From IMG/VR virus record IMGVR_UViG_3300045988_031867: a stretch of DNA of 58,475 nucleotides. One strand, written 5' to 3'. Shown here in pieces: positions 1 to 58,475 of the stretch. The stretch comes from a virus. A program made the position numbers and the translations under genes. Under the pieces are notes generated by a model. It ran no database searches. It was not told the origin of the DNA and worked only from the letters and a program-made list of their open reading frames with translations. Position 1 is the stretch's first letter. Every line of letters starts with the position of its first letter.

Positions 1-119
1 ACCATGTGCTTTTAGTTGCTGTCTGTGCGCTTCTCTGGACCCCATTTAGGCTTCTTTGAATTGTCCGTGAAGCAGAACCCACCCTTGAACCTTGGCTTGC
101 TAAATTCGCCAATGCGTTA
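1..119. repeat. Terminal direct duplication: bases 1-119 are identical to 58357-58475 (circular-assembly overlap)
   Basis: The string accatgtgcttttagttgctg...ttcgccaatgcgtta occurs at both window ends in the same orientation. It lies inside one continuous minus-strand reading frame. Confidence 0.95.
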
Positions 120-6376: not shown

Positions 6377-6910
6377 CTATAACTTGTAATAATCTCTTGC
6401 CTCAACGCTTGGGGCTGCCGAACCAAAACTAATTGTTTCAGCGTTTGCTACATCGTTAGGCTTTTCTTTATTCTGACTGCCAGCACCGCCGCCACCAGGA
6501 ACATCTGCATTTTTAGCAATTTCCTGAATCTTAGCCTGTACTGCTGCCGTCTCTCTTGCGGTGATAATCTCTGATACAGAATCAATAGCAGACCTAGCAA
6601 GCTCAAGGTTATCCTGAAATCCTGCTAATACCTTGTTTGCCTGTTCGCCTGTCAAGCCCTTTTCCGCCGCATAAGCCCTTATGTCCTTCTGAATGTTCTC
6701 ACGCTGCAAGTTGGCTATCTGCTCTCTTAACTGCGTAAGCTCCTCTGAATTGTCAGGCTTGACCTCTAATTCGGATGCTGAAATAGTTGGCTGTGCCGGT
6801 GCCTGTGGTGCGTTGCTGTGGAACTGATTAAGATAGTTTGTTATCTGTGCCGGTGTCGGCTCCTCAATTCCTAATGCAATTAAGTTCTGCTTTGCTTCTT
6901 CCCTTGTCAT
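6377..6910 (-). CDS. Scaffolding protein
   Basis: 177 aa, helical and Gln/Glu/Ala-rich (LREQIANLQRENIQKDIRAYAAEKGL). It lies directly upstream of the capsid genes. Confidence 0.55.
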   Translation of the reverse strand: MTREEAKQNLIALGIEEPTPAQITNYLNQFHSNAPQAPAQPTISASELEVKPDNSEELTQLREQIANLQRENIQKDIRAYAAEKGLTGEQANKVLAGFQDNLELARSAIDSVSEIITARETAAVQAKIQEIAKNADVPGGGGAGSQNKEKPNDVANAETISFGSAAPSVEARDYYKL

Positions 6911-13860: not shown

Positions 13861-14115
13861 TTAATATCCGCCGTTAAATTCCGAAAGCCATTCTTTTAGC
13901 TCTACATGTGCCTTAGCAAAGCAAAGTTCCATGTCGCAATCACTTTCATTGACAATTATTACATCTTCGCCGTCATGCTTAGCCTCAGGGTAATCATCAG
14001 CACAGCCTTTTTTATAAATCAAAATATTCCAATCACATATTTTGCTATAAGTAATTACAAGATGCATTGGAAAGTCTTTTGCTTTATCGTCAAAAAATTT
14101 TAAAAATTCGTTCAT
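13861..14115 (-). CDS. Hypothetical protein
   Basis: 84-aa ORF coupled to its neighbours. Confidence 0.55.
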   Translation of the reverse strand: MNEFLKFFDDKAKDFPMHLVITYSKICDWNILIYKKGCADDYPEAKHDGEDVIIVNESDCDMELCFAKAHVELKEWLSEFNGGY

Positions 14116-14333
14116 TCTTTCACCAACTCTCTACCACACATAGGGCAATAAAATATTTTCTTTTTTAAAACCGAAAACCTAAGGTTTGAAGGCAAATTGT
14201 CAAAAACCATTTCCAACACCAATCCATTGTCCTGTATTTTAGCCTCACAGATTTTTATTTTTTCACCCATTACACCGCTTTGTTCCGTACTTGAGATTAT
14301 AGCCTCCGGCTTATTGCTGCAAAATTTGCACAT
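14112..14333 (-). CDS. MCKFC...YCPMCGR zinc-ribbon paralog 3
   Basis: 73 aa. N-terminal MCKFC and C-terminal YCPMCGRELV are shared with the two upstream ORFs. Confidence 0.65.
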   Translation of the reverse strand: MCKFCSNKPEAIISSTEQSGVMGEKIKICEAKIQDNGLVLEMVFDNLPSNLRFSVLKKKIFYCPMCGRELVKE

Positions 14334-14334
14334 A

Positions 14335-14547
14335 TTACACCAGCTTTCTACCGCACATAGGGCAATAATTGATATTTAATGCTCCTGCTCCGTACTCGTT
14401 TGCACTATTAGTAAAGACTAGTGCGTTATTATCTGTTATTTTTCGTATTTCTATTTTAATTCCACTAGGAACTATGTCAAAATCTTCTTCTGGTAAGAAA
14501 TTCCAATCTGGAAGTCCTATTCCTATGTTTTCGCAAAATTTACACAT
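14335..14547 (-). CDS. MCKFC...YCPMCGR zinc-ribbon paralog 2
   Basis: Start moved to ATG 14547 (MCKFCENIG), 2 nt after the upstream stop. C-terminal NYCPMCGRKLV. Confidence 0.65.
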   Translation of the reverse strand: MCKFCENIGIGLPDWNFLPEEDFDIVPSGIKIEIRKITDNNALVFTNSANEYGAGALNINYCPMCGRKLV

Positions 14548-14549
14548 AC

Positions 14550-14801
14550 TTAGTCCTCTCTCAGTTTTTCGCCACACATAGGACAGTAATTAATCTTTAC
14601 AACCTTAGTCATAACTAAAGGCTTTATATGTTCGTTATCAAGGCAAGCAACTATATTCAGTGTGCTATCCTCAGCACTAACAAATGCCTGTATTCCGGTA
14701 TAGTAGCCCTCGTTATATTTGCTTTCTTTTCTTTCAGACAGTTCCTTTACCTCAAACGCTAAATCATGTTCATTAAATTTCTGTTCGCAAAATTCACACA
14801 T
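14550..14801 (-). CDS. MCEFC...YCPMCGE zinc-ribbon paralog 1
   Basis: 83 aa with MCEFCEQ at the N-terminus and NYCPMCGEKL at the C-terminus. Confidence 0.65.
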   Translation of the reverse strand: MCEFCEQKFNEHDLAFEVKELSERKESKYNEGYYTGIQAFVSAEDSTLNIVACLDNEHIKPLVMTKVVKINYCPMCGEKLRED

Positions 14802-15218: not shown

Positions 15219-15417
15219 TGTAGTCCTCCGTAATTCAGTGTCAATAATGAAAGATTGATGCGGTATGGATTTGCACCACACATGATTGATTTCTGAAAGC
15301 TGTTTGTTGCTAATTACGGACAATCCCCGCTTATTACTCGGCAAACATGCTATCAATCAGCTTCTTTGCTTGCGTTTACCTATTCCGCTACACACCAATA
15401 GACAATTTATGCCTAAA

Positions 15418-15489
15418 TGACGCATGGGAGAATCGAACTCACGTCTCCGCCGTGAAGGGGCGGTGTCTTAACCACTTGACTAATGCGCC
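15418..15489 (-). tRNA. tRNA-Glu(UUC)-like, with C at position 33 and a U:C mismatch in the T-stem
   Basis: Hand fold: GGCGCAT TA GTCAAGTGGTTAAGAC A CCGCC CCTTCAC GGCGG AGAC GTGAG TTCGATT CTCCC ATGCGTC A. The architecture is collinear with Bacillus-type tRNA-Glu. No encoded CCA. Confidence 0.75.
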
Positions 15490-15582
15490 ATGTCCGCTCT
15501 TTGTTTTACTTGCCGAGCGGTGGCAAGGCTACACGAAAATTGAATCAAAAAGGGGTATTGCTTTGCGCCTCATTCGAGGCAG

Positions 15583-15656
15583 TCGGAATAGCAGGATTTG
15601 AACCTACGACCTCTCCAGCCCAAGTGGAGCGTTCTGCCAAACTGAACTATATTCCG
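15583..15656 (-). tRNA. tRNA-Pro(UGG)
   Basis: Hand fold: CGGAATA TA GTTC AGTTTGGCA GAAC G CTCCA CTTGGGC TGGAG AGGTC GTAGG TTCAAAT CCTGC TATTCCG A. The cloverleaf is regular. Confidence 0.85.
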
Positions 15657-15884
15657 TAAGTGCAGACTGGGCGACAGCGAGAATCAGCAGCGTCGCAAGC
15701 TTCCCGGCTTATGTTGTCCGCACTGTTGCTATTCTTTTAGCGTGTTATGGAACGCTGGGGAACTACAGCAACAAAACCCGAAAACCTATCGAGCCTTGTG
15801 ACGGCTCTTAACAGCATTCCGCTAATAGGTGGAGTTTATGAAACAACATGACTTAAAAGTCCGATGGTCATTTGCATGACCAAA

Positions 15885-15956
15885 CTGGGCTAGTCGGATT
15901 CGAACCGACGAATACAGCAGTCAAAGTGCTGTGCCTTACCGCTTGACGATAGCCCA
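15885..15956 (-). tRNA. tRNA-Gln(UUG)
   Basis: Hand fold: TGGGCTA TC GTCAAGCGGTAAGGCA CAGCA CTTTGAC TGCTG TATTC GTCGG TTCGAAT CCGAC TAGCCCA G. The U1-A72 pair and D-arm are typical of bacterial tRNA-Gln. Confidence 0.85.
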
Positions 15957-16072
15957 AAAAATTACATGTCTTTAAACATCTGCATAAGTGCCCTTATGGC
16001 TATGGCAAAATCATTATGAGTACTATTATTATGCCGATTATAAATATCCCTAAAGCTGTCAGACCGAGAAAT

Positions 16073-17719: not shown

Positions 17720-17954
17720 AATATAATCACCTCCAAATCATAATCTTAATCTCTCTCACACATGAGATTATCATATCACATGATTGGTGACATGACTATA
17801 TACATAAAGTATATAAAATATAACTTTGGGGTATTTAAGCATAGTACTTTGGTACTAATCGCATATACAGTATATAATTATATACGTTTTTTAAAAAAAC
17901 TGATTATTTATTTACAAATTCTCATTAATCTCATCTTCTCTAATCTTATCTTTT

Positions 17955-17993
17955 CTAGGCTACATTCTGTTGACAGTTTGTATACAGATTTTA
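17955..17993. repeat. Conserved 39-bp element, copy 1 (TTGACAG + TGTATACA palindrome)
   Basis: ctaggctacattctgttgacagtttgtatacagatttta matches 50876-50914 at 33/39 positions by hand count. The flanking taatcttatct is also shared. Confidence 0.8.
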
Positions 17994-18285: not shown

Positions 18286-18431
18286 GCTGGAAGTGCCGAC
18301 CGTTAATGTCGCTTGGTATCATTGTTTAATCGGTCGTGACTTGGCAGGAGCCATTATTATTTAATTTAATAGGCACTTTACAGCAGAAAACGAACCGGGA
18401 AAGTTCTTAACCTCGCCCGGTTCGCTTTTTT
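18286..18431 (+). ncRNA. Candidate ~145-nt small RNA (promoter-to-terminator unit without ORF)
   Basis: Bounded by the promoter above and a 9-bp-stem terminator at 18391-18431. An internal long-range stem pairs aagtgcc (18291-97) with ggcactt (18372-78), enclosing hairpin cgaccg/cggtcg. No SD-led ORF is present. Confidence 0.4.
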
Positions 18432-18846
18432 AATACAGATTTTCAAACGCTTCTGAAATTGAAGCTGTCAATTTTGAACTGGACAACTTGGAATTGCCGG
18501 CTTTTTCGACAGCTTTCGGCAAATTGTTTTTAAAATCGGATGCCGCTCTTAACGCATCTGATTTTATCTCTCGCCATGTGCGGTCAACTATATTAATATA
18601 ATAGTCACACTGTGAGCCGCTTCCGGTCGGCTTGTGGTCGGATATTCTGATTTTATAACAATTTCCGTCATTGTCGGAAATTGTCAGATAATTGCTCATG
18701 CCATAACATGAGCTTTCATCATGCAGACAAGATAAACCTGTCTGTGATTCTACCTTGCTTGCAAGGCACTCACACCTTGCCGCAAGGTAGTTCTTGCATG
18801 TGTAGTACCTTGTTCTATTTTTATCATCGAATTTAAAATCTGACAT
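18430..18846 (-). CDS. Hypothetical Cys-rich protein (KIRISDH motif)
   Basis: 138-aa ORF with SD GAAGGAGGA. Function unknown. Confidence 0.65.
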   Translation of the reverse strand: MSDFKFDDKNRTRYYTCKNYLAARCECLASKVESQTGLSCLHDESSCYGMSNYLTISDNDGNCYKIRISDHKPTGSGSQCDYYINIVDRTWREIKSDALRAASDFKNNLPKAVEKAGNSKLSSSKLTASISEAFENLY

Positions 18847-18878
18847 TTTAAATCCTCCTTCATTTTTTATTTTTAAAA

Positions 18879-18928
18879 AGCAACCCGGGGAGTTGAACCC
18901 CGGCAGTGCGCCGCCTCCGGCGGTTGCC
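18879..18928 (-). other. tRNA-like minihelix element A (7-bp acceptor-like stem, 4-bp hairpin, canonical T-arm)
   Basis: Minus strand: ggcaacc gccggaggcggc gcactgc cgggg ttcaact ccccg ggttgct, then TTTT. It starts 7 nt after the stop of ORF 18936..19208. Confidence 0.6.
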
Positions 18929-18935
18929 TAACTGT

Positions 18936-19208
18936 TTACCGCAAACCGAGTGCCTCCAACTCGCTGCGTTCCCAGTCGCTGACAACACAGCGTATCGCCA
19001 GCTCTGGGTCATATCCGTACTTCAATGTACGGAGTTTTGAGCAATACTCATCTGCGCATCGCTCGATGAAATCACAATCACTAGGGTTAATTGTGATTGT
19101 GTCGTTCTCAAGGAGTTCTGGCAGCTCCCTGAGAACTTTTTTAATTTTTATAACTGCTGCTGGGTCGGCAGCTCTGTTTTCTCTTCTCCACTGAATTTTA
19201 AAATCCAT
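18936..19208 (-). CDS. Hypothetical protein
   Basis: 90-aa ORF with SD AGGAGGTG. Confidence 0.65.
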   Translation of the reverse strand: MDFKIQWRRENRAADPAAVIKIKKVLRELPELLENDTITINPSDCDFIERCADEYCSKLRTLKYGYDPELAIRCVVSDWERSELEALGLR

Positions 19209-19283
19209 GTTGGCACCTCCTGAATTTTAATTTTTCGTGTAGCAAACACACGTTCGGAAATTCTTCTCCCTTCCGACATCATT

Positions 19284-19317
19284 ATAATAGCATATCTTTA
19301 TCACTTTTGCAAGTGAT
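19284..19317 (-). promoter_or_regulatory. Promoter (TTGCAA-17-TATTAT) with overlapping operator ATCACT-N6-AGTGAT
   Basis: Inverted repeat at 19300-19317. The -35 is at 19307-19312 and the -10 at 19284-19289 on the minus strand. The same operator recurs at 19664-19681. Confidence 0.6.
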
Positions 19318-19321
19318 ATTT

Positions 19322-19570
19322 TTAATTTTTTGAAAAAATTCTTAATTTCTTCTCGCGCTCCTCTGCTGTCTCTTCATATATAAAAATGTCCTTCGGCTGC
19401 AAATCCAGTATCAGGCACAGGTTGTTGAGCGTTGTTAAGTTAATTCCTGTATCTTCATTCTTAATCTTCCTTAATGCGTCTTGGCTTATCAGCCTGGTTG
19501 TTTTGGCTTTATAAGTATTGAAGCCGGCGCGCTCCAAGGCATCGCCCACGTTAAATTTATACTTAAGCAT
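19322..19570 (-). CDS. XRE-like helix-turn-helix regulator
   Basis: Start moved to ATG 19570 behind SD GGAGGTGA. MLKYKFNVGDALERAGFNTYKAKTTRLISQDALRKIKN...LTTLNNLCLILDLQPKDIF looks like an HTH pattern. 82 aa. Confidence 0.6.
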   Translation of the reverse strand: MLKYKFNVGDALERAGFNTYKAKTTRLISQDALRKIKNEDTGINLTTLNNLCLILDLQPKDIFIYEETAEEREKKLRIFSKN

Positions 19571-19657
19571 CTTATCACCTCCTCGTTGTGTTTTTAATAT
19601 ATGGCAGTTTTTAAAAAAAGTCAATAAAAATATTTCTAAAAAAAGTGATAAAACCTA

Positions 19658-19686
19658 TTGACTATCACTGATAAAAGTGATATTAT
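19658..19686 (+). promoter_or_regulatory. Promoter TTGACT-17-TATTAT whose spacer is filled by operator ATCACTgataaaAGTGAT
   Basis: The -35 is at 19658-63, the operator at 19664-81 and the -10 at 19681-86. An extra AGTGAT half-site lies at 19644-49. Confidence 0.65.
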
Positions 19687-19761
19687 AATATCAACGAAAG
19701 GGAAATAGAACAGATGCAGAACATGTGTTTGTTGTACCCAAAAACAAGGAGGTGACTATAT

Positions 19762-19941
19762 ATGATGTTAATGGCAAGCGTGAGATATGAGGGAGAGATA
19801 CAAGTTGTAAAAAATGATACTTTTACAACAAAGAGAGCTTATGCAGATGCTCTCCGAGGCAACGGTTATCGCGTTCGCTTTATCGCCAAGCCGGAGGAGT
19901 TCGACGAGGTTTGCGAGAATTTTTACAGCCGTAAAAAATAG
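19762..19941 (+). CDS. Hypothetical protein, 59 aa
   Basis: SD AAGGAGGTGA lies 7 nt before ATG 19762. MMLMASVRYEGEIQVVKNDTFTTKRAYADALRGNGYRVRFIAKPEEFDEVCENFYSRKK. It is below the ORF-track cutoff. Confidence 0.6.
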   Translation: MMLMASVRYEGEIQVVKNDTFTTKRAYADALRGNGYRVRFIAKPEEFDEVCENFYSRKK

Positions 19942-19983
19942 CCGCCGTAGAGGATGCCAGCCGGACCGATACCGGCGGCGGTT
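19940..19983 (+). other. tRNA-like minihelix element D (degenerate T-loop)
   Basis: agccgcc gtagaggatgcca gccgg accgata ccggc ggcggtt. The 5' strand overlaps the TAG stop. It is followed by hairpin cccct-ctttat-agggg at 19986-20001. Confidence 0.4.
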
Positions 19984-20034
19984 CTCCCCTCTTTATAGGG
20001 GTATTAAAATTTTAACATTATAAGGAGGACGAAT

Positions 20035-20547
20035 ATGGGAGAAATAATACAGTTTCCCGTTAAGAAGAGCAACGGATATTACAATCTTACTGCACTGTTT
20101 GAAATCTGCGACAGTGTCGCAAGCTGCAACGCCTATCTGGACATTTCGGAGACGCTTTTCGGAAATGGTGACATTTCCGAAAACGAACTTCACACCCTAC
20201 GCCGTATCGGCAGGGGCAAGCGTCTTGAACTTGCTACCCCGCCGCAAAAGGAGGCGCTGAAGGCTGAGAAGCCCGGGACTTATGTATATACCCCGGAAAT
20301 GGGGCAACAGAAACCGGAGGGCTGTCAGATAGAAGCCCACCGCGCATATTACGGAGGGCATATATTTATCGACACTCCGTTAGAGCTTAAGGGGCGTGGC
20401 ATCCAGTTTTTAAAAACGTACAGGCCCGGCGACTTGACAAGCTCCGGGCAGTATAAGAGCGGCTGGAACGCTTATAAAGTCACGAATAGAGCTTACGCCC
20501 TACTGAAAACGCGGTATGCGATTTCATGGGAAAGCTGTTTGGATTAA
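20035..20547 (+). CDS. Hypothetical protein
   Basis: 170-aa ORF with SD AAGGAGGA. Confidence 0.7.
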   Translation: MGEIIQFPVKKSNGYYNLTALFEICDSVASCNAYLDISETLFGNGDISENELHTLRRIGRGKRLELATPPQKEALKAEKPGTYVYTPEMGQQKPEGCQIEAHRAYYGGHIFIDTPLELKGRGIQFLKTYRPGDLTSSGQYKSGWNAYKVTNRAYALLKTRYAISWESCLD

Positions 20548-20597
20548 GGCAATCACCGGAGGCGGTGCACTGCCGGGGTTCGATTCCCCGGGTTGCT
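20548..20597 (+). other. tRNA-like minihelix element B
   Basis: ggcaatc accggaggcggt gcactgc cgggg ttcgatt ccccg ggttgct starts on the base after the TAA stop. It matches element A at 45/50 positions with compensatory changes. It is followed by hairpin tctccc-ttag-gggaga. Confidence 0.6.
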
Positions 20598-20650
20598 TTT
20601 CTCCCTTAGGGGAGACATTAAAAATACATCATTTTTTTAGGAGGCGTTTT

Positions 20651-20923
20651 ATGATTAAAAAAATAATTGAAGAATTAACGCGGCTAGAGCGATTGGAGGA
20701 AATCGCAAATCAAGCTGATGCGGACTATGACCGCGAGCCTGAAAATGCGGCTTATGAGAAAGCATTTGATGAAGCGTATAAAAATGAATACGCCGCGTTT
20801 ATAGGCGTTGCTACAATGCTAGCTACATGGCTTGGCATTGATATATCCACAGCGCGTGCGATGGTAAACGGGAAGCGCGCGGAATTGTGGGACGTGTTAA
20901 AACGTGCAGCAATTCAAGCCTAA
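20651..20923 (+). CDS. Hypothetical protein
   Basis: Start moved to ATG 20651 behind SD TAGGAGGC. 90 aa, helical. Confidence 0.65.
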   Translation: MIKKIIEELTRLERLEEIANQADADYDREPENAAYEKAFDEAYKNEYAAFIGVATMLATWLGIDISTARAMVNGKRAELWDVLKRAAIQA

Positions 20924-20968
20924 GTGACGGCAGGTGCCAACGTGGGCGGTTCGATTCCGCCCGTCACT
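20923..20968 (+). other. tRNA-like minihelix element C
   Basis: agtgacg gcaggtgccaacgtg ggcgg ttcgatt ccgcc cgtcact, then TTTTT. The first base is the last base of the TAA stop. The acceptor-like stem is a perfect 7 bp. Confidence 0.55.
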
Positions 20969-21019
20969 TTTTTCAGTCGATAAAGTCGGCTAGATAATTA
21001 AATATATGGAGGTATTAAA

Positions 21020-21322
21020 ATGAAAAAACTAGATATTTATAGTTGTAATGACGCATTTGCGTCTAGCAATGAAATCATGGAGCTTGTAGCCAAAAAAACG
21101 GCTACAAGTGAGGCACTTATGTTGACGTGTCTGTCAAAGAGCACAGTTGAGATGTTGGCTTATGCAGTGGCTGGCAGCGTCGACCACGCGTTAATGGGAG
21201 GGCTAGCGGTTTCAGTAATCGCCGGCGACACTTGGTTATTTTGCGATTTTGGTGTTCGCAAAACTGAGGTCGTGTTTGATAATAGTCGCAAGGCTGAACT
21301 TCTCAGCTTTTATGGCTTGTAA
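21020..21322 (+). CDS. Hypothetical protein
   Basis: 100-aa ORF with SD TGGAGGT. Confidence 0.65.
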   Translation: MKKLDIYSCNDAFASSNEIMELVAKKTATSEALMLTCLSKSTVEMLAYAVAGSVDHALMGGLAVSVIAGDTWLFCDFGVRKTEVVFDNSRKAELLSFYGL

Positions 21323-21338
21323 AGAAGAATAAGCAGTT

Positions 21339-21368
21339 AAAAAGAGAACTTTCAGAAGTTCTCTTTTT
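21339..21368. terminator. Bidirectional intrinsic terminator
   Basis: aaaaagagaactt-tcag-aagttctcttttt. Confidence 0.8.
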
Positions 21369-21576
21369 GTCGTTCCTTGACAAATTGAAATCGAAGTGCT
21401 ATTTTATCATCAAGCGGACAACTGCACCCTTAATGAGCGGCGGCTTGTAACGTAATGCTGTTTGGCGGTCTGTTTGTTGTGCCTAACTTTATTGTCATAG
21501 GCAGAGCCGTGGTGACTTTGGGTGTGACATTCTACTGGTCCCACTGTCATACAGAGCTGTTTTTGGCTCAAAAACA

Positions 21577-21808
21577 ACACCAAATCAGAGCTAAATTTTG
21601 CGAAAATCTGAAATTAATTTTTAAAATTTACGTTTCGGGTATAGGGGCGTACCAAAAATGTTGACCCGAAAATTTTAGGGAAAATTTTTGAAAAAAATAT
21701 CGAGAAAATCAGAAAAAATGACACCAAATCGGAGCCAAATTTCACAAGAATTTGACTTCGATTTTTTATTTTTCATTTCCATAGGTGGGGGCGATTAAAA
21801 ATTTTTGC
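21577..21808. repeat. Diverged tandem duplication (two ~88-bp units, 144-bp period) in an AT-rich non-coding region
   Basis: Unit A begins acaccaaatcagagctaaatttt and ends ataggggcgtaccaaaaatgttg. Unit B (from 21721) begins acaccaaatcggagccaaatttc and ends ataggtgggggcgattaaaaatttttg. Many phased A/T tracts. Confidence 0.6.
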
Positions 21809-36794: not shown

Positions 36795-37520
36795 CTAAAA
36801 CGGACACTCACTAGGATTTTTCAAATCCCAACTTTTCCCTGCAACCGCAACATCTACATTCGCCCCATAAGCAACTTTTTTCATCTTTTCGATAAAACTA
36901 TCTTTATCAGAATTTTCACTTGATAAATGGCACATTATGACGTTCTGCAAGCTATCTGAATAATTCGCCTTAGCAAAATCACAAGCTGTGTCAATGGATA
37001 AGTGACCTCTGAATACGTGATTAGCTTTGCCTGTGTTATCCCTGTCGATTAAATCCTTGTCATAGTTCACGCCCAAGAGAATGTGGTTTATGTCTTTAAA
37101 TCTCCACTTGATTAGTTCACAATCGGTTATGTAAAGCATTCTTCCCATTTCCTTGTGAGTAATCAGAAAGCCATATATCGGGCAAGGTTCGCCATTTGCG
37201 TCTGTATGTGTCCAATTCCCGTCCAATGTCTGTAGTGGAAACGGATAAATTGTGAATCCGCCATAATTCTTCTTGTTATAGCTTCTTTGGTATGGTGCAA
37301 ATACTGGCATTGACATTTTTTTTAAATTGTCTAATGACTTGCTGTGGTCAAGGTGTTTATGGGTGCATAACACACCCACAACATCTTTAATGTTCCAATC
37401 TAAGCCTTTTTTAATCTCCTTGATGCCGATACCACAATCAAGGATAAGCGTTTCTCCGTTGTCTGCGTGCAACAGATAGCAGTTGCCGCTACTGCCAGTT
37501 GAAATACATTTAAGTTTCAT
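36795..37520 (-). CDS. Metallo-beta-lactamase-fold hydrolase
   Basis: THKHLDHS (HxHxDH) motif. Start moved to ATG 37520 behind GAGAGG. Confidence 0.8.
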   Translation of the reverse strand: MKLKCISTGSSGNCYLLHADNGETLILDCGIGIKEIKKGLDWNIKDVVGVLCTHKHLDHSKSLDNLKKMSMPVFAPYQRSYNKKNYGGFTIYPFPLQTLDGNWTHTDANGEPCPIYGFLITHKEMGRMLYITDCELIKWRFKDINHILLGVNYDKDLIDRDNTGKANHVFRGHLSIDTACDFAKANYSDSLQNVIMCHLSSENSDKDSFIEKMKKVAYGANVDVAVAGKSWDLKNPSECPF

Positions 37521-37728
37521 CCAAAAACCTCTCAACATATTCGTTCCATTTTTCTATTGCCTTTTCTTTTGTGGCTACATTATGAAAGAACATCTTCTTT
37601 GCGTGTACTCCATCGTTTAACCTGTATCTCGGACAGCCAGAACTATATCCCATAAAAAATCCGTCTGGCTCATTTCTAAGAACAACAGCTTCAGCACTAC
37701 ATATAGGGCAATTTCTTAGCCCTTTCAT
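37510..37728 (-). CDS. Lar-like restriction-alleviation-type zinc protein
   Basis: 72 aa. CPICSAEA...GCPRY... and the C-terminal KEKAIEKWNEY pattern. Confidence 0.4.
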   Translation of the reverse strand: MKGLRNCPICSAEAVVLRNEPDGFFMGYSSGCPRYRLNDGVHAKKMFFHNVATKEKAIEKWNEYVERFLDET

Positions 37729-38273: not shown

Positions 38274-39377
38274 CTATTCTGCCGTCATAAATGGCGGTAA
38301 CTCCGTCTGCTCTGTTGACTGCTCCTTGGTTGTTTCTATTGCCCTTGCACTGGAATTATCTTCTATGAACTCAACTGTATTAGAGTTCTCGTCAATCTCA
38401 GCCTGTGCAAGCTGATAAACTTCGTCCATTTCAACCTGTGCCTGTCTTGCCATTGGGTCATAATTCTTCGGAAATTTTTTTGTGGCATTGTTGCACATTT
38501 TCCTCTGAATCATGCTCTCTGGGGTATCAAGCCAAGCACCCGATATAAACGGTCTAGCGATTTCACACTTTATCATATCGTCTACGGTTTCGCACTGCCT
38601 CAACGCGTTGAGAACTTCTTCCTTTTTCTCTTTTATCTTCTTTTTCTCTTCCGGTGTAGCGTCATAACGAGTGCGTTCCACTTCCTTGTTGTACTGCTTT
38701 TTCGTGCCGGTTATTATTCCGAAAGTTTCATTCTGCATATTCTGCTTTACATGGGACAGTAAATTTATCTTTACGCTGTCTCTGTCCGCGGATAAATAAG
38801 TAACCGTTCCGTCCTTTAACTTCACAGGATATACAACTCTTACAGCTTTGTCGGACAATCCTTTCTCTTCCCACTCCGGGTCGGTGATTGAAAGCCCTTT
38901 GTGCTTAGGCGGAACGTACACGTCACCCTCCTTGATAACCCAATATGGATAAACTGTATCAACATTCTTCCCGTAGTTGGATAAGAGCGAATCGTAGCCA
39001 GCTCCCTCAATTCCCATTTCGACCTGCTTCTGCCATATTTCTTCTTTTGTTTGTGGGTCAGTGCCTACTTTCACACTCCTTAACTGGAAATAGCACTCCC
39101 TTGGGTATGCGCTAGCATTGAGCTTTAAGCTTGCACAACGCTTTACAATGCCCCTTATATTGCTTGTATCAAGATTACCCATATTAGTCTTAGGGTCATT
39201 CTTGACAAGATTGAATATGCTTGTCATAGCCTCCATAGCGCACTCTTTCGCATAATCATCCATATCCATTCCACAAGCCTTATAATCGTCAATAATAAGA
39301 CCTGTCATAGCATTACTCCACTCACTTAATGACGTGGTAAATGCTTTCTTTTCTGCTACTGCTGTTGTTTCTGCCAT
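38274..39377 (-). CDS. RecT-like single-strand annealing protein (putative)
   Basis: Start moved to ATG 39377 behind AGGAGGG. Its position between the SMC-like ATPase and the MBL/SSB genes fits a recombination module. The sequence pattern is only loosely RecT-like. Confidence 0.4.
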   Translation of the reverse strand: MAETTAVAEKKAFTTSLSEWSNAMTGLIIDDYKACGMDMDDYAKECAMEAMTSIFNLVKNDPKTNMGNLDTSNIRGIVKRCASLKLNASAYPRECYFQLRSVKVGTDPQTKEEIWQKQVEMGIEGAGYDSLLSNYGKNVDTVYPYWVIKEGDVYVPPKHKGLSITDPEWEEKGLSDKAVRVVYPVKLKDGTVTYLSADRDSVKINLLSHVKQNMQNETFGIITGTKKQYNKEVERTRYDATPEEKKKIKEKKEEVLNALRQCETVDDMIKCEIARPFISGAWLDTPESMIQRKMCNNATKKFPKNYDPMARQAQVEMDEVYQLAQAEIDENSNTVEFIEDNSSARAIETTKEQSTEQTELPPFMTAE

Positions 39378-39389
39378 TTCCAATCCCTC

Positions 39390-50716: not shown

Positions 50717-50875
50717 AGTCTTATTCCTCCATGTGTCTAATTTTATCTAATAAAAAAGACAGCCCACACGGACTGCCCTTTATATTATCTATATAATTTA
50801 CTGTTTTTTATTAATATATATATTTATATATAATATATATACATATTAATCTTATCTATACTATTCTTATCTAAT

Positions 50876-50914
50876 CTAGGTTACGCTTTGTTGACAGACT
50901 GTATACAGATTTTA
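50876..50914. repeat. Conserved 39-bp element, copy 2
   Basis: ctaggttacgctttgttgacagactgtatacagatttta contains the 10-bp palindrome CTGTATACAG. It lies ~160-200 bp upstream of the M23 gene. Confidence 0.8.
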
Positions 50915-57500: not shown

Positions 57501-58475
57501 TCAAAATCAATCTTAACACCCATAAGGCTTGCAACGCCCACAAGCATACGTTTGATTGCGATTGTTGTACCATTGACAACAGGCATAACTTTTTGAAGGA
57601 CAGGTATAAAAATCTGCCCTAATACCATGCCTGTCTCTTTGATGTTCGTGTTGAATTGCCTAATCATGTTACTTGGACTGTTTATTGTATTAGATAAATC
57701 ACCCCATGAAACCTTAGATTGGTCAAGTATAGCAAGTACTCTTAACTGCTGCTTTTCCATCTGCGTCATTTCACTTATGGATTTTTCAACGCCTAAGTTG
57801 TAAGCATATGTCTGCAATGTGGCATTGGTAATATCAATACCATACTTGTACAATGCCCTTGATTGACCGATTAAGCCACTTTGTATGTTGGTGGCTACGG
57901 ATGAGTAGTCAACATTAAAAAGAGAGCTTATATCGCCGGCAAGCATTGTCATTGACTTTGCTACCGCCGTGGTTGTCTCTCCTGTCTGTCCAAGTGAATT
58001 AGTCACCGAAGCAAGCTGTGACGCAAACTCCGTAACCTCTTGGATATTCAAGCCTAAGTTCTTAGTGCTGTCTGCAGTCAACAAGCCGTCATCAACATCA
58101 ACTTGCAGTCCCGAAAGCTTACCAAGCAACGCACTTACTCTGTCTGAAAAGCTGTTCGCATAATCCGTAGCGTTGTCATAGCCGTACTTTCCAAAGTCTT
58201 TGCCCCATTCGGAGCCGATTTTGCCAAATGCAACCGCATAGTAGTTGAACGCCTCAATGTAATCTGTGGTACTTTCAATGGACTTCCACAAGCCCTTAGC
58301 TCCTCGCACAACCATAAAGTATGATGCGTAAAACTTTCCGAACGCCTTAGCCAGTGACCATGTGCTTTTAGTTGCTGTCTGTGCGCTTCTCTGGACCCCA
58401 TTTAGGCTTCTTTGAATTGTCCGTGAAGCAGAACCCACCCTTGAACCTTGGCTTGCTAAATTCGCCAATGCGTTA
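54542..58475 (-). CDS. Tape measure protein, 3' portion (continues from 610..120 across the circular junction)
   Basis: A single open frame reaches the window end. The track's 'M' at 58468 is an internal TTG Leu codon. It is Ala/Gly/Ser-rich and helical with a central hydrophobic GxxxG-rich block, typical of tape measure proteins. Confidence 0.85.
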   Translation of the reverse strand, partial: NALANLASQGSRVGSASRTIQRSLNGVQRSAQTATKSTWSLAKAFGKFYASYFMVVRGAKGLWKSIESTTDYIEAFNYYAVAFGKIGSEWGKDFGKYGYDNATDYANSFSDRVSALLGKLSGLQVDVDDGLLTADSTKNLGLNIQEVTEFASQLASVTNSLGQTGETTTAVAKSMTMLAGDISSLFNVDYSSVATNIQSGLIGQSRALYKYGIDITNATLQTYAYNLGVEKSISEMTQMEKQQLRVLAILDQSKVSWGDLSNTINSPSNMIRQFNTNIKETGMVLGQIFIPVLQKVMPVVNGTTIAIKRMLVGVASLMGVKIDFDAFGQNGYKDTSDRLEDIANGYDDVADAAKNAQKGVRGFDELENRTTGTSKSGASTGAGDTIDLTDEIVKATEEYEKVWNDAFDKMENKAEAWADKVQSFFERMFKPLKTWGGKVDWKKLKNGFNGILDFAKKFTVGTGTGFLDFIEGLSNIGAPAINLLGGAVEILFKALNLVPAPVWHTLGGALGGVATALLAFKAYSAIASGINTGLGKFADAILKISSAKPVSVGEGVGKLGTAIASLSTGGYVVLAVGALAAVAGAIISIEQAYKNSIDAFTQTSVFDGQGTPIGDIAQQVIDLINATGTSSEDMTNFATELDRVSTNLQSASEEVENLKFKFDNLDLKNISNTDIEDMRTAVGDLASALRDDLHVSSDMAWDALAKMSADTATKLGISVGEMTTILSDFNARFNGIYSDMESQANTIFDKMLSGEATQADVDSLNGLLDDMNYLSGEAIKRQVDLQNSFDSMTNINFQSLEETTKAISDITEAGKAKFDEVDEYYQSLIGQADEWKVYTQRALERGKITSEEAGQYLDWIDNLAEIYNANWTEEKDDITNQINTTFDYIQSQVEKAGVEAFQEAQTKDWGFADLFRNPIQDVAKSVNKNMVQPTITAINQGKEQIGIEISKDNHLYQRWLDNATVSENDVSGWAMQNANAIGNAILANADITTKAFADMAGYDVSGYTDAIKKYQPNVKTSLINMNNNAIMGLSNEANTKMQNVGKSVVTGYIGGVNSNSQQLIKPVAGLANLSLSTFMEAQGSQGNKPSSGFSGIGKNSILGYMQGIDSLEKVSTDKVSSMAAKLSTTFADKTTVNMPSIGVQVMTGFLNGLTSMEQSVYSKADEIAKNVAKTIQSALDIHSPSRVMFELGAYTTEGFKEGMESLYKPTELSIKDFGFGMVEAVHPQQLYSGYADYTPSVSTSTSTTTQNYYNTSSSVDNAETNALLRELISAVKQGSKIEIDGKAIGNVVRKEDRSYFQRTGRGLFEH
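58357..58475. repeat. Second copy of the 119-bp terminal duplication
   Basis: Identical to 1-119. Confidence 0.95.

Follow-up and report, generated by a model that had tools for sequence, protein, structure and literature searches.

Anticodon-less tRNA-like minihelices beside stop codons in gut phages, candidate signals for mRNA processing

Three minihelices among small phage genes

The window analysed here is the whole 58,475-nt stretch of viral DNA in IMG/VR record IMGVR_UViG_3300045988_031867. It carries three short tRNA-like minihelices among small ORFs, one on the minus strand and two on the plus strand. Element A (18879..18928, minus strand, 50 nt) follows a 90-aa ORF (18936-19208, minus strand), whose stop codon lies 7 nt before it, and is itself followed, after a Shine-Dalgarno (SD) sequence, by a 138-aa ORF (18430-18846, minus strand). 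On the plus strand, a 170-aa ORF (20035-20547) ends in a TAA that directly adjoins element B (20548..20597, 50 nt). Another 90-aa ORF (20651-20923, plus strand) lies between B and element C (20923..20968, plus strand, 46 nt), and its stop overlaps C by 1 nt, the first base of C being the last A of the TAA. The plus-strand ORF 21020-21322 lies downstream of C, and the operon with B and C ends at a canonical intrinsic terminator (21338..21369, plus strand), recognised from its sequence and fold as a 14-bp stem followed by U5. Comparison of the flanking ORFs with Pfam and PHROG gave no informative family except for one HTH_26 repressor-like protein. The preliminary description of this DNA had placed A, B, C and a fourth candidate, D, at 7, 0, -1 and -2 nt from stop codons; the ORF ends agree with these distances, and the sequences given there for all four agree with the DNA letters.

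All three elements were identified by RNAfold and by two covariance models. A and B belong to one subtype and C to a second. Element A is laid out as an outer stem (GGCAAC/GUUGCU), a small hairpin (CGCCG-GAGG-CGGCG), a linker (CACUG) and a T-arm (CCGGGG-UUCAACU-CCCCGG), and the loop of B is UUCGAUU. The stems of C are unlike those of A and B: the outer stem is AGUGAC/GUCACU, the hairpin GGC-AGGU-GCC and the T-arm GGGCGG-UUCGAUU-CCGCCC. Pair 3-70 is C-G in A and B and U-A in C. The layout common to the three consists of an outer stem of 6-7 bp, a short connector bearing GG, and a stem of 5-6 bp that adjoins the outer 3' strand and closes a UUCRAYU loop. RNAfold gave an identical three-way junction for A, B and C: outer stem and small hairpin, then 5 linker nucleotides, then a 6-bp stem closing the 7-nt loop. 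It also showed that base -1, mostly an A from the stop codon, is able to pair with a U past the stem; this A(-1):U pairing makes the stem 1-2 bp longer than the tRNA standard.

The reported identity of A and B at 45 of 50 positions was reproduced in a recount, which gave five differences. Two of these make up a single G-C to A-U swap in the small hairpin. A third, in the outer stem, converts C-G to U.G, and the remaining two affect positions 57 and 59 of the T-loop. Together, A and B form the arms of a 54-nt inverted repeat (91%). The folding-energy z-scores of A, B and C were -1.4, -1.4 and -3.0. Folding energy by itself is weak evidence; support for the structure comes from other sequences, by comparison.

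The preliminary description had proposed a search with a covariance model. A model built from A/B-type sequences only (R1, alignment A4) scored A at 81 bits and recovered C in the window at E = 1.4e-6, with no other non-A/B match. A family-level model (R2), built from an alignment that was itself aligned by covariance model (A7), found exactly A, B and C, with E values from 7e-10 to 2e-7 (1.5e-8 for A), and its next-best match in the window had an E value of about 1.8. A structural scanner returned four matches in the window, compared with a mean of 0.26 in 200 shuffles; besides A, B and C it picked up the 3' half of tRNA-Pro. MAFFT alignments A1-A3 misplaced the gaps between subtypes and were not used.

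Of the four minihelices originally claimed, A, B and C were confirmed by fold and models, and D was not a member. D (19940..19983, plus strand) is a GC-rich hairpin with a different fold, was matched by neither R1 nor R2, and has a loop, ACCGAUA, that is no T-loop, so we rejected it as a degenerate copy. The D site in relatives holds the same T-loop-less hairpin or an unrelated one.

A family with covarying stems and a conserved T-loop

The three elements are members of a large family, with hundreds of copies in gut phage contigs of about 55-60 kb, in Lachnospiraceae prophages and in human-gut metagenomes. A prophage of the cultured isolate Lachnospira intestinalis CLA-AA-H89B (contig NZ_JBBMFS010000001.1) contains two copies. 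Running R2 on the metagenome loci returned chiefly the same copies that had brought those loci in, and little was gained.

To the extent that counts from a model-fitted alignment with many sequences from related phages can be read, 99.6% of the stem cells form standard pairs across 12 stem pairs in 43 distinct sequences of several subtypes, and in 9 of the 12 pairs both partners have changed. Covariation scored 0.453 compared with 0.166 in shuffles, with none of 500 shuffles reaching 0.453, and shifting the partner by one column lowered pairing to 52-58%. The comparison of these sequences indicates that the stem structure is under selection. Changes that keep pairing through G.U on the sense strand speak for selection on RNA rather than on DNA.

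Conservation of the loop was assessed with a search pattern that left the loop free: UUCRANY was retained in 104 of 117 distinct copies. The connectors, by comparison, vary freely (61 different sequences) while the T-loop is kept. The preliminary description had named SD-like purine tracts in the internal segment as a shared feature. This was abandoned in favour of GG, since an SD-like 4-mer occurs in the connectors of only 7 of 43 distinct members and GG in 42 of 43. The connector GG probably docks on the T-loop, as G18-G19 of the D-loop does in tRNA.

The family showed zero overlap with real tRNA genes. No Rfam family was matched above threshold by the elements, and blastn against GenBank phages and PLSDB plasmids gave no match. 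As far as Rfam, blastn and the literature allow this to be checked, the earlier statement that no such phage element has been described holds; no phage equivalent was found in the literature, with the reservation that a catalogue of 10,006 candidate viral structured RNAs (PMC10690425) may list the family.

Gene context, trailers and a candidate role in mRNA processing

The position of the elements relative to genes is strongly constrained. A co-oriented ORF ends at -2 to +13 nt in 137 of 149 distinct contexts (about 92%). Placement at a stop codon was seen for 146/215 elements on the sense strand, compared with 41/215 on the mirrored strand and 9% of random positions. Downstream of the element come an SD sequence and a start codon (median 45 nt). 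Element and stop codon overlap by 1-2 nt in 43 of 114 main-type contexts, and likewise in C. Because of this overlap, a canonical RNase P cut would destroy the stop codon, and productive cleavage on the 5' side is doubtful unless inactivation of the upstream mRNA is its purpose.

The region just past the element is shared with the phages' own tRNAs. The B trailer holds a hairpin (20600..20615, plus strand; UCUCCC-UUAG-GGGAGA) 2 nt past B, then an A-rich stretch, an SD sequence and the ATG at 20651. The C trailer hairpin (20973..20994, plus strand) is conserved jointly with C in relatives as cagccgataaagtcggctag. As comparators we used the three tRNA genes of the window, Gln, Pro and Glu (15417..15957, minus strand), called by ARAGORN and Rfam. 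They lie within an mRNA operon, with tRNA-Gln starting 5 nt past a TAA; none encodes CCA, and past the 3' end of each there is UU or CU, then a hairpin. Among the phages, CCA is encoded by only 2 of 205 tRNAs and by no copy of the family. At the two nucleotides past the annotated 3' end, UU is seen for 68% of elements and for 50% of the tRNAs, compared with a background of 11%, and a hairpin begins within 5 nt downstream in 160/225 members (71%), 103/205 phage tRNAs (50%) and 25% of random sites. Elements and CCA-less phage tRNAs thus have in common a trailer made of discriminator, UU and small hairpin. Further ties to tRNA genes were found in type-G elements, which occupy the last slot of tRNA arrays, in a 56-nt relative that has kept the D-arm and lost the anticodon arm, and in a real tRNA of these phages that carries the T-arm of type E.

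The elements are not canonical tRNAs. They have the 12-bp acceptor/T-stem stack and the UUCRANY T-loop, as seen in folds, pair counts and the loop census; they lack the cloverleaf and its anticodon arm, and with the Rfam tRNA model they stayed below threshold. ARAGORN with default settings called only the three real tRNAs in the window, and neither the elements nor a tmRNA. In the relaxed mode suggested as a check, ARAGORN pushed coding sequence into the arms.

Based on these comparisons, A, B and C appear to be anticodon-less tRNA mimics in polycistronic phage mRNA and would most likely be processing signals, a reading to which we give slightly less than an even chance. Among the roles raised in the preliminary description, that of substrate for tRNA-processing enzymes seems to fit the comparative evidence best (covarying geometry, T-loop, lack of CCA, trailer, arrays). 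Plant-mitochondrial t-elements with the motif GGTTCRANYCC mark mRNA ends made by RNase P and RNase Z (PMC1920247), and by the motif definition of that study the phage elements combine a tRNA-like fold and a conserved T-arm motif in an mRNA precursor beside a coding region. In Firmicutes, RNase Z cleaves after the discriminator of CCA-less precursors (PMC8549757).

From the observed structure, covariation, T-loop, position and strand, and trailer, we infer the following enzymatic steps and stabilising roles. RNase Z is an enzyme that prefers U after the discriminator, and the host RNase Z would cleave just past the unpaired base after the outer stem, as on phage CCA-less tRNA precursors; the 5' edge may be cleaved by RNase P too. 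Cleavage would part the upstream and downstream cistrons. The hairpin 2-5 nt downstream would end up at the new mRNA 5' end and could protect the next mRNA, while the minihelix would either stay on the upstream mRNA and stably cap its 3' end or be freed as an RNA of roughly 45 nt. An MBL-fold ORF (36795-37538) was considered as a phage RNase Z and rejected; its sole PDB match, to a generic metal-dependent hydrolase, was weak.

A broader version of the processing reading seems improbable to us. It holds that a widespread group of Lachnospiraceae phages of the human gut runs a tRNA punctuation in which host RNase Z and RNase P excise the tRNA mimics at stop codons from early polycistronic mRNAs, and in which the mini-tRNAs (40-50 nt, possibly CCA-tailed) also act in trans, for example by tying up host factors that recognise the elbow or the acceptor end of tRNA. 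About a third of the cuts would then clip the stop codon.

Other explanations were weighed against the same evidence. The elements could be branched intrinsic terminators or attenuators, in which the outer stem beside a U-run stops or pauses RNA polymerase and the T-loop is inherited from a tRNA ancestor; as a ribosome on the adjacent stop would melt the 5' strand, termination could depend on translation of the upstream ORF. A consensus scan did flag A, B and C as terminator-like, the 8 nt after each copy in the window include 4-6 U, which makes partial termination plausible at A and C, the elements sit very tightly beside stop codons, and the first U is available for pairing with A(-1), an arrangement known from A-tract/U-tract terminators. 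Family-wide, however, copies most often have 3 U among these 8 nt, with at least 5 in only 19 of 227 copies, and the same UU trailer occurs on real tRNAs inside arrays. Types E and F are placed directly after a canonical terminator, the B/C operon closes at a terminator of its own, and a conserved T-loop and GG are not needed by terminators. The downstream genes are preceded only by an SD sequence, and in the consensus scan the stretches from B and from C to the following start codon contained nothing promoter-like. We consider this explanation unlikely, and the short U-tracts of the family together with the two subtypes that come after a canonical terminator support the earlier remark that these are not plain terminators. 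Similarly low is our estimate for a sponge or decoy, in which 40-50-nt mini-tRNAs, cut out by RNase P and RNase Z and perhaps given a CCA tail, act in trans on a host factor that reads the acceptor, T-arm or elbow; the target could be a tRNA-directed toxin or a tRNA-modifying or processing enzyme. Several copies per phage lie in early or accessory operons, the T-loop and GG are stricter than cleavage alone seems to demand, and the phage encodes RtcB and three tRNAs. Lachnospiraceae gut phages also express small structured RNAs abundantly (PMC10690425). Strict placement after stops and before a hairpin and an SD sequence nevertheless points to a role in cis, and the neighbouring ORFs are diverse and unannotated, with no consistently adjacent partner protein. 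As they have no anticodon loop, the elements cannot mimic the substrates of anticodon nucleases.

Explanations at the level of DNA or of descent fare less well. The suggestion that the elements are attachment-site scars or 3' fragments of host tRNAs was refuted: both strands of the outer stem are present, no tRNA gene lies at matching sites in a 185,579-species bacterial genome collection, and the phage integrase is a large serine recombinase. The scan of this collection gave 14 loci, none overlapping a tRNA gene; Polyangiaceae matches in that scan had only the T-arm in common and were set aside. We attach a rather small probability to module junctions in the DNA, where homologous-recombination linkers shuffle small accessory genes and the RNA structure is incidental. 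A near-invariant element does follow at least five to six different upstream genes and precede several different downstream genes, one locus (L011) joins a B-type element to a C-type trailer, two others (L026 and L022) have recombination joints within the element, and the A/B inverted repeat surrounds a 1.6-kb module. But a linker requires identity and not compensatory changes, and subtypes with wholly different stems retain the fold and loop; G.U-preserving changes and a strict strand bias relative to genes again indicate selection on RNA. Recombination at the elements is more likely a consequence of their conservation. Very improbable, finally, are neutral relics, that is, phage tRNA genes in decay, whose anticodon arm is gone and which serve no function today. 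An intermediate with a D-arm is known (locus L152), some elements lie inside tRNA arrays and the T-arm of type E is found on a real phage tRNA as well, yet the copies number hundreds, their stems covary, the T-loop is held while the connector drifts, and placement relative to stop codons and trailers is consistent.

Significance and relation to known systems

Should tRNA-maturation enzymes cut the elements, phages of a dominant gut bacterial family would split and tune their polycistronic mRNAs in the manner of organelles. We found no description of tRNA-shaped punctuation for bacteria or their viruses; it is known from organelles and a few eukaryotic lncRNAs. The family would add to the known structured RNAs a compact type absent from Rfam, whose hundreds of copies occur in abundant human-gut phages of 55-60 kb. 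It would also supply RNase P, RNase Z and the CCA-adding enzyme with a minimal substrate of natural origin. The two-copy Lachnospira prophage is a ready experimental system, and the element could be tried as a building block for programming RNA processing in Firmicutes.

Several known RNAs resemble the elements in part. Rho-independent terminators also have GC-rich pairing followed by U residues, 3' of a stop codon, whereas the elements form a three-way junction with a conserved T-loop and a U-run of usually 3 nt. The tRNA-like domain of tmRNA and YrlA share an acceptor/T-arm and a reduced D-loop that still bears GG, and some bacteria show genetic linkage of YrlA to RtcB (PMC4201824). In contrast to both, the elements have no mRNA-like domain, G3:U70 or Ro-binding stem. 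ARAGORN called no tmRNA, and the only tmRNA-related hit in Rfam, below threshold, was a 17-nt, 12-bit match to beta-tmRNA; YrlA had no Rfam match, and no Ro60/TROVE protein was seen among roughly 30 window ORFs scanned against Pfam. The mascRNA/MEN-beta RNA (RF01684) likewise combines an acceptor stem and a T-arm with a reduced middle, and the mammalian RNA is cut by RNase P and RNase Z. The RF01684 model aligned end-to-end with A (29.9 bits) and B (26.2 bits), below its gathering score of 42.5, and left C unmatched. Unlike the elements, mascRNA, a nuclear RNA of mammals, has retained a short anticodon-like stem; the likeness of A and B to it is one of fold, not of homology.

In mitochondrial tRNA punctuation, too, tRNA-shaped units lie between cistrons, where they mark sites of cleavage, and stop codons overlap the unit. 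There, unlike in the phage family, the units are mostly functional tRNAs, and truncated stops are completed by polyadenylation; such completion is not known in Firmicutes. Canonical phage tRNAs share with the elements the 12-bp acceptor/T-arm stack, the T-loop, the lack of CCA, the trailer of UU plus hairpin, and the same operons and arrays, and differ in having the anticodon arm and the D-stem, the latter usually missing from the elements. Plant-mitochondrial t-elements are alike in their non-canonical tRNA-like fold, GGTTCRANYCC T-arm and location in mRNA precursors by coding regions, and in plant mitochondria their borders coincide with mRNA 5' and 3' ends (PMC1920247). They are organellar, few per genome and individually diverse, whereas in DNA phages of Firmicutes a compact form of 40-50 nt recurs as a family, placed against stop codons and followed by a trailer hairpin.

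Three tRNA-like elements in the phage genome

An exact 119-nt direct repeat occupies both ends of the window (1-119 and 58357-58475). The window is therefore a complete phage genome that either has terminal redundancy or was assembled as a circle. Its structural genes encode an E-family major capsid protein, an SPP1-type portal and a terminase. It also encodes an RtcB ligase, a large serine recombinase, DNA methylases, RecT and an antirepressor. Three genes, for tRNA-Gln, tRNA-Pro and tRNA-Glu, are located at 15417-15957 on the minus strand, which carries almost all genes of the window. The exception is a small plus-strand island (~19.7-21.3 kb), which, with the adjacent minus-strand genes, makes up a divergent module of early or regulatory type centred on an HTH_26 protein.

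The preliminary description had proposed four minihelices, each with an acceptor-like outer stem, a connector and a T-arm but no anticodon arm: A (18879-18928, minus strand), B (20548-20597, plus strand), C (20923-20968, plus strand) and D (19940-19983, plus strand). The check confirmed the four sequences and how far each lies from a stop codon. A and B differ at 5 of 50 positions: a compensated exchange of G-C for A-U accounts for two of them, a C-G pair turned into U.G for a third, and positions 57 and 59 of the T-loop for the other two. Using RNAfold, we found that A, B and C form an identical three-way junction, in which the outer stem is directly followed by a small hairpin, a 5-nt linker and a 6-bp stem capped by a UUCRAYU loop of 7 nt. 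The loop-bearing stem adjoins the 3' strand of the outer stem in all three, giving a 7+5 bp acceptor/T-arm stack. Taken alone, their folding energies are unremarkable (z of -1.4 to -3.0), and the main support comes from comparative tests. R1, a covariance model made from A/B-type sequences alone, matched C at E = 1.4e-6 when filters were switched off and found no element besides the A/B-type and C in the 58-kb window. A later family-level model (R2) likewise found A, B and C only, the next best match being at E ~1.8, and a structural scanner gave 4 matches in the window versus a mean of 0.26 in shuffles. D was rejected as a member, since it has a different fold, no T-loop and no match to R1 or R2; in relatives, its site holds either this T-loop-less hairpin or one unrelated to it. 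The window copies thus number three.

Several other features of the genome were observed. The A and B arms (18876-18929 and 20547-20600) form a 54-nt inverted repeat with 91% identity, bracketing a 1.6-kb module with divergent promoters, a repressor-like HTH_26 ORF (19322-19573, minus strand) and small ORFs. If recombination between the arms inverted the module, the promoters would exchange the flanks that they drive. Past a canonical terminator, a promoter-like site (TTGACA-17-TATTTT with TG, 21377-21405) is followed by ~400 nt (to 21800) with no convincing ORF and no Rfam match, and the stretch 21377-21800 could be a non-coding RNA gene. Three neighbouring paralogous small ORFs (14112-14801, minus strand; 73-83 aa, zinc-ribbon-like) each begin with MC(K/E)FC and terminate in YCPMCG(R/E)(K/E)L. 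An 81-nt direct repeat (17913-17993 versus 50834-50914, 78% identical) contains TTGACAG...TATACAGATTTTA and is a candidate for a promoter or operator present twice. The MBL-fold ORF at 36795-37538 (minus strand), near RecT (38274-39383), was considered as a phage RNase Z and rejected, because its one match, a weak one, was to a generic metal-dependent hydrolase.

Selection on RNA structure and distribution of the family

Pair statistics were obtained from 43 distinct sequences of several subtypes, many of them related, in an alignment fitted to the model. The 12 stem pairs showed standard pairing in 99.6% of cells, with both-sided changes in 9 of them. The covariation score was 0.453 compared to 0.166 in shuffles (0/500 as high), and sliding the pairing partner by one column lowered pairing to 52-58%. 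For instance, A/B have C-G at outer pair 6 where the main type has G-C, and type-G loci from different phages, otherwise near-identical, differ at the third T-stem pair (G-C, U-A or A-U). The small hairpin occurs as GCCG/CGGC, GCUG/CGGC, GCUG/CAGC and ACCG/CGGU. Several substitutions keep pairing solely as G.U on the sense strand, which points to selection on RNA, not DNA.

With a search pattern that left the loop free, UUCRANY was found in 104 of 117 distinct copies, among which the connector takes 61 different sequences. A GG is present in the connector of 42/43 sequences, while the SD-like tract previously suggested as a common feature did not hold up, with an SD-like 4-mer in only 7/43. 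In the tRNA elbow, G18-G19 of the D-loop dock onto the T-loop, and by analogy the conserved GG is best read as a putative elbow contact of this kind. That A, B and C belong to a real structured-RNA family is strongly supported.

Copies were collected by exact-pattern scans, each collection with its own pattern. Among IMG/VR viral contigs, the A/B core pattern was found in 19 stretches, the C core pattern in 10, and the sister main subtype (GGCAAG...CUUGCY) in more than 120; in this collection, A/B and C elements of almost constant sequence stand behind five or more different upstream genes. At least 120 contigs from human-gut metagenome assemblies carry the main subtype, many of them 55-62 kb long (coverage up to 1519x). 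A pattern for the T-arm and 3' strand, run over 185,579 bacterial and archaeal genomes, gave 14 loci, and 10 have the full minihelix layout. Nearly all of these belong to Lachnospiraceae or related Clostridia (for example Roseburia, Acetatifactor, Lachnospira and Clostridium sp. CAG:510), with one Treponema bin; Lachnospira intestinalis isolate CLA-AA-H89B has two copies in a prophage region, on the minus strand at L037:6397-6447 and 6754-6798. None of the matches overlaps a tRNA gene, which removes the earlier suggestion that the elements are att-site scars of host tRNA 3' ends.

A loose scanner, for which a T-loop on a 5-bp stem next to an outer stem was enough, gave 272 sites in 1.42 Mb of fetched loci (~150 of them guaranteed by the fetching procedure), 230 being outside real tRNAs, compared to 9-13 in shuffles. 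It also revealed further subtypes E, F, G and H with quite different stems. No Rfam family reached threshold for the elements, and blastn against GenBank phages and PLSDB plasmids gave no match. Four loci from Polyangiaceae MAGs (L027, L028, L032 and L036) lie in a GC-rich, non-phage-like context and match the T-arm and CTTGCG only; they were set aside as another T-arm-containing element. One of them (L036:4460-4533) scored 28 bits with R1 and had no ARAGORN call.

Gene context and likeness to tRNA genes

The elements are co-oriented with flanking genes. An ORF ends at -2 to +13 nt from the first base of the element in 137 of 149 distinct contexts, and the stop codon is overlapped by 1-2 nt in 43/114 main-type contexts, the most frequent case being a TAG whose G is base 1. 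An ORF ending at the 5' side was found for 146/215 elements on the sense strand, compared to 41/215 on the mirrored strand and 9% of random sites. On the 3' side, a short U-run and a small hairpin usually come first; an A-rich stretch then leads to an SD and the next start codon, which lies at a median of 45 nt. The small hairpin begins within 5 nt of the element in 160/225 cases versus 25% at random.

Real tRNAs of these phages share this context. The tRNA genes of the window lie inside an mRNA operon, tRNA-Gln beginning 5 nt past a TAA. Each has UU or CU behind it and then a hairpin. None of the three encodes CCA, and only 2/205 phage tRNAs across the loci do. UU directly follows the annotated 3' end in 50% of tRNAs and, taking the putative discriminator as the end, in 68% of elements (background 11%); trailer hairpins stand behind 50% of tRNAs and 71% of elements. 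Type-G elements (L046:9957-10004 and L078:11285-11332, plus strand; L079:7666-7713 and L084:1708-1755, minus strand) fill the last slot of tRNA arrays, immediately before the next ORF. The elements look like tRNA genes cut down to the enzyme-read part, with the same precursor context retained.

A 56-nt element (L152:807-862, minus strand) has an acceptor stem, a 3-bp D-arm with GG in its loop and a T-arm, without an anticodon arm, and looks like an intermediate between tRNA and minihelices. Among relatives (loci L001-L180), ARAGORN called suppressor or odd tRNAs (tRNA-Stop tta, SeC tca, undetermined gcgg), which have one T-arm in common, ACAGG-TTCAAGT-CCTGT.

Candidate processing signals and their analogues

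The best explanation, to which we give roughly an even chance, is that the elements are tRNA-mimic processing signals. In favour of terminators, a consensus scan flagged A, B and C as terminator-like, and the window copies have 4-6 U in the next 8 nt. However, family-wide the U count in these 8 nt has a mode of 3 and reaches five or more in only 19/227, and the UU trailer is common to elements and tRNAs inside arrays. Subtypes E and F (L046:3228-3270 and L043:84-122, both minus strand, and relatives) lie immediately behind a canonical terminator hairpin with U5, and the operon of B and C has a separate textbook terminator at 21338-21369. Therefore processing is favoured over termination. Downstream of the E and F elements, we observed A, CU and a hairpin, with promoter-like sequence next in type F.

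Recombination driven by DNA identity was also considered as the reason for the elements. It clearly occurs at these sites: a B-type element is fused to a C-type trailer in one locus (L011), joints lie inside the element after homologues of orf170 (20035-20547, upstream of B; locus L026) and of orf59 (L022), and the A/B inverted repeat surrounds the regulatory module. At these two joints, the ~20 first nt of a B-like or D-like element are followed by unrelated sequence (..CGGCGAC/TTTAAACA..), so breakpoints can fall within elements. Nevertheless, such recombination leaves the compensatory change and the strand bias unexplained. Neutral decay of tRNA genes is unlikely, since covariation and placement speak against it. 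A role as a trans-acting decoy is conceivable and could coexist with processing.

RNase P, RNase Z and the CCA-adding enzyme are known to act on minihelices composed of acceptor stem and T-arm. RNase Z of Firmicutes cuts after the discriminator of CCA-less precursors (PMC8549757). The overlap with the stop codon argues that, for about one element in three, a canonical RNase P cut would not be a productive route to the 3' end of the upstream mRNA. For processing, either RNase Z alone would act, the minihelix staying as a 3' cap, or cleavage would be a deliberate inactivation of the upstream message. After cleavage, the hairpin on the 3' side would come to lie 2-5 nt from the new 5' end, and it could protect the following mRNA against 5' exonuclease.

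Our literature searches turned up no description of elements like these in phages or bacteria. A 2023 catalogue of 10,006 candidate viral structured RNAs (PMC10690425) mentions candidates that resemble tRNA, as well as small RNAs of high expression from Lachnospiraceae and Blautia phages; the motif may already be in it, without a function. The closest functional analogues are mascRNA/MEN-beta, whose model A and B match end to end but below threshold, mitochondrial tRNA punctuation and the t-elements of plant mitochondria. Plant-mitochondrial t-elements, at which mRNA ends are made by RNase P and RNase Z, have the GGTTCRANYCC motif in common with the phage elements (PMC1920247).
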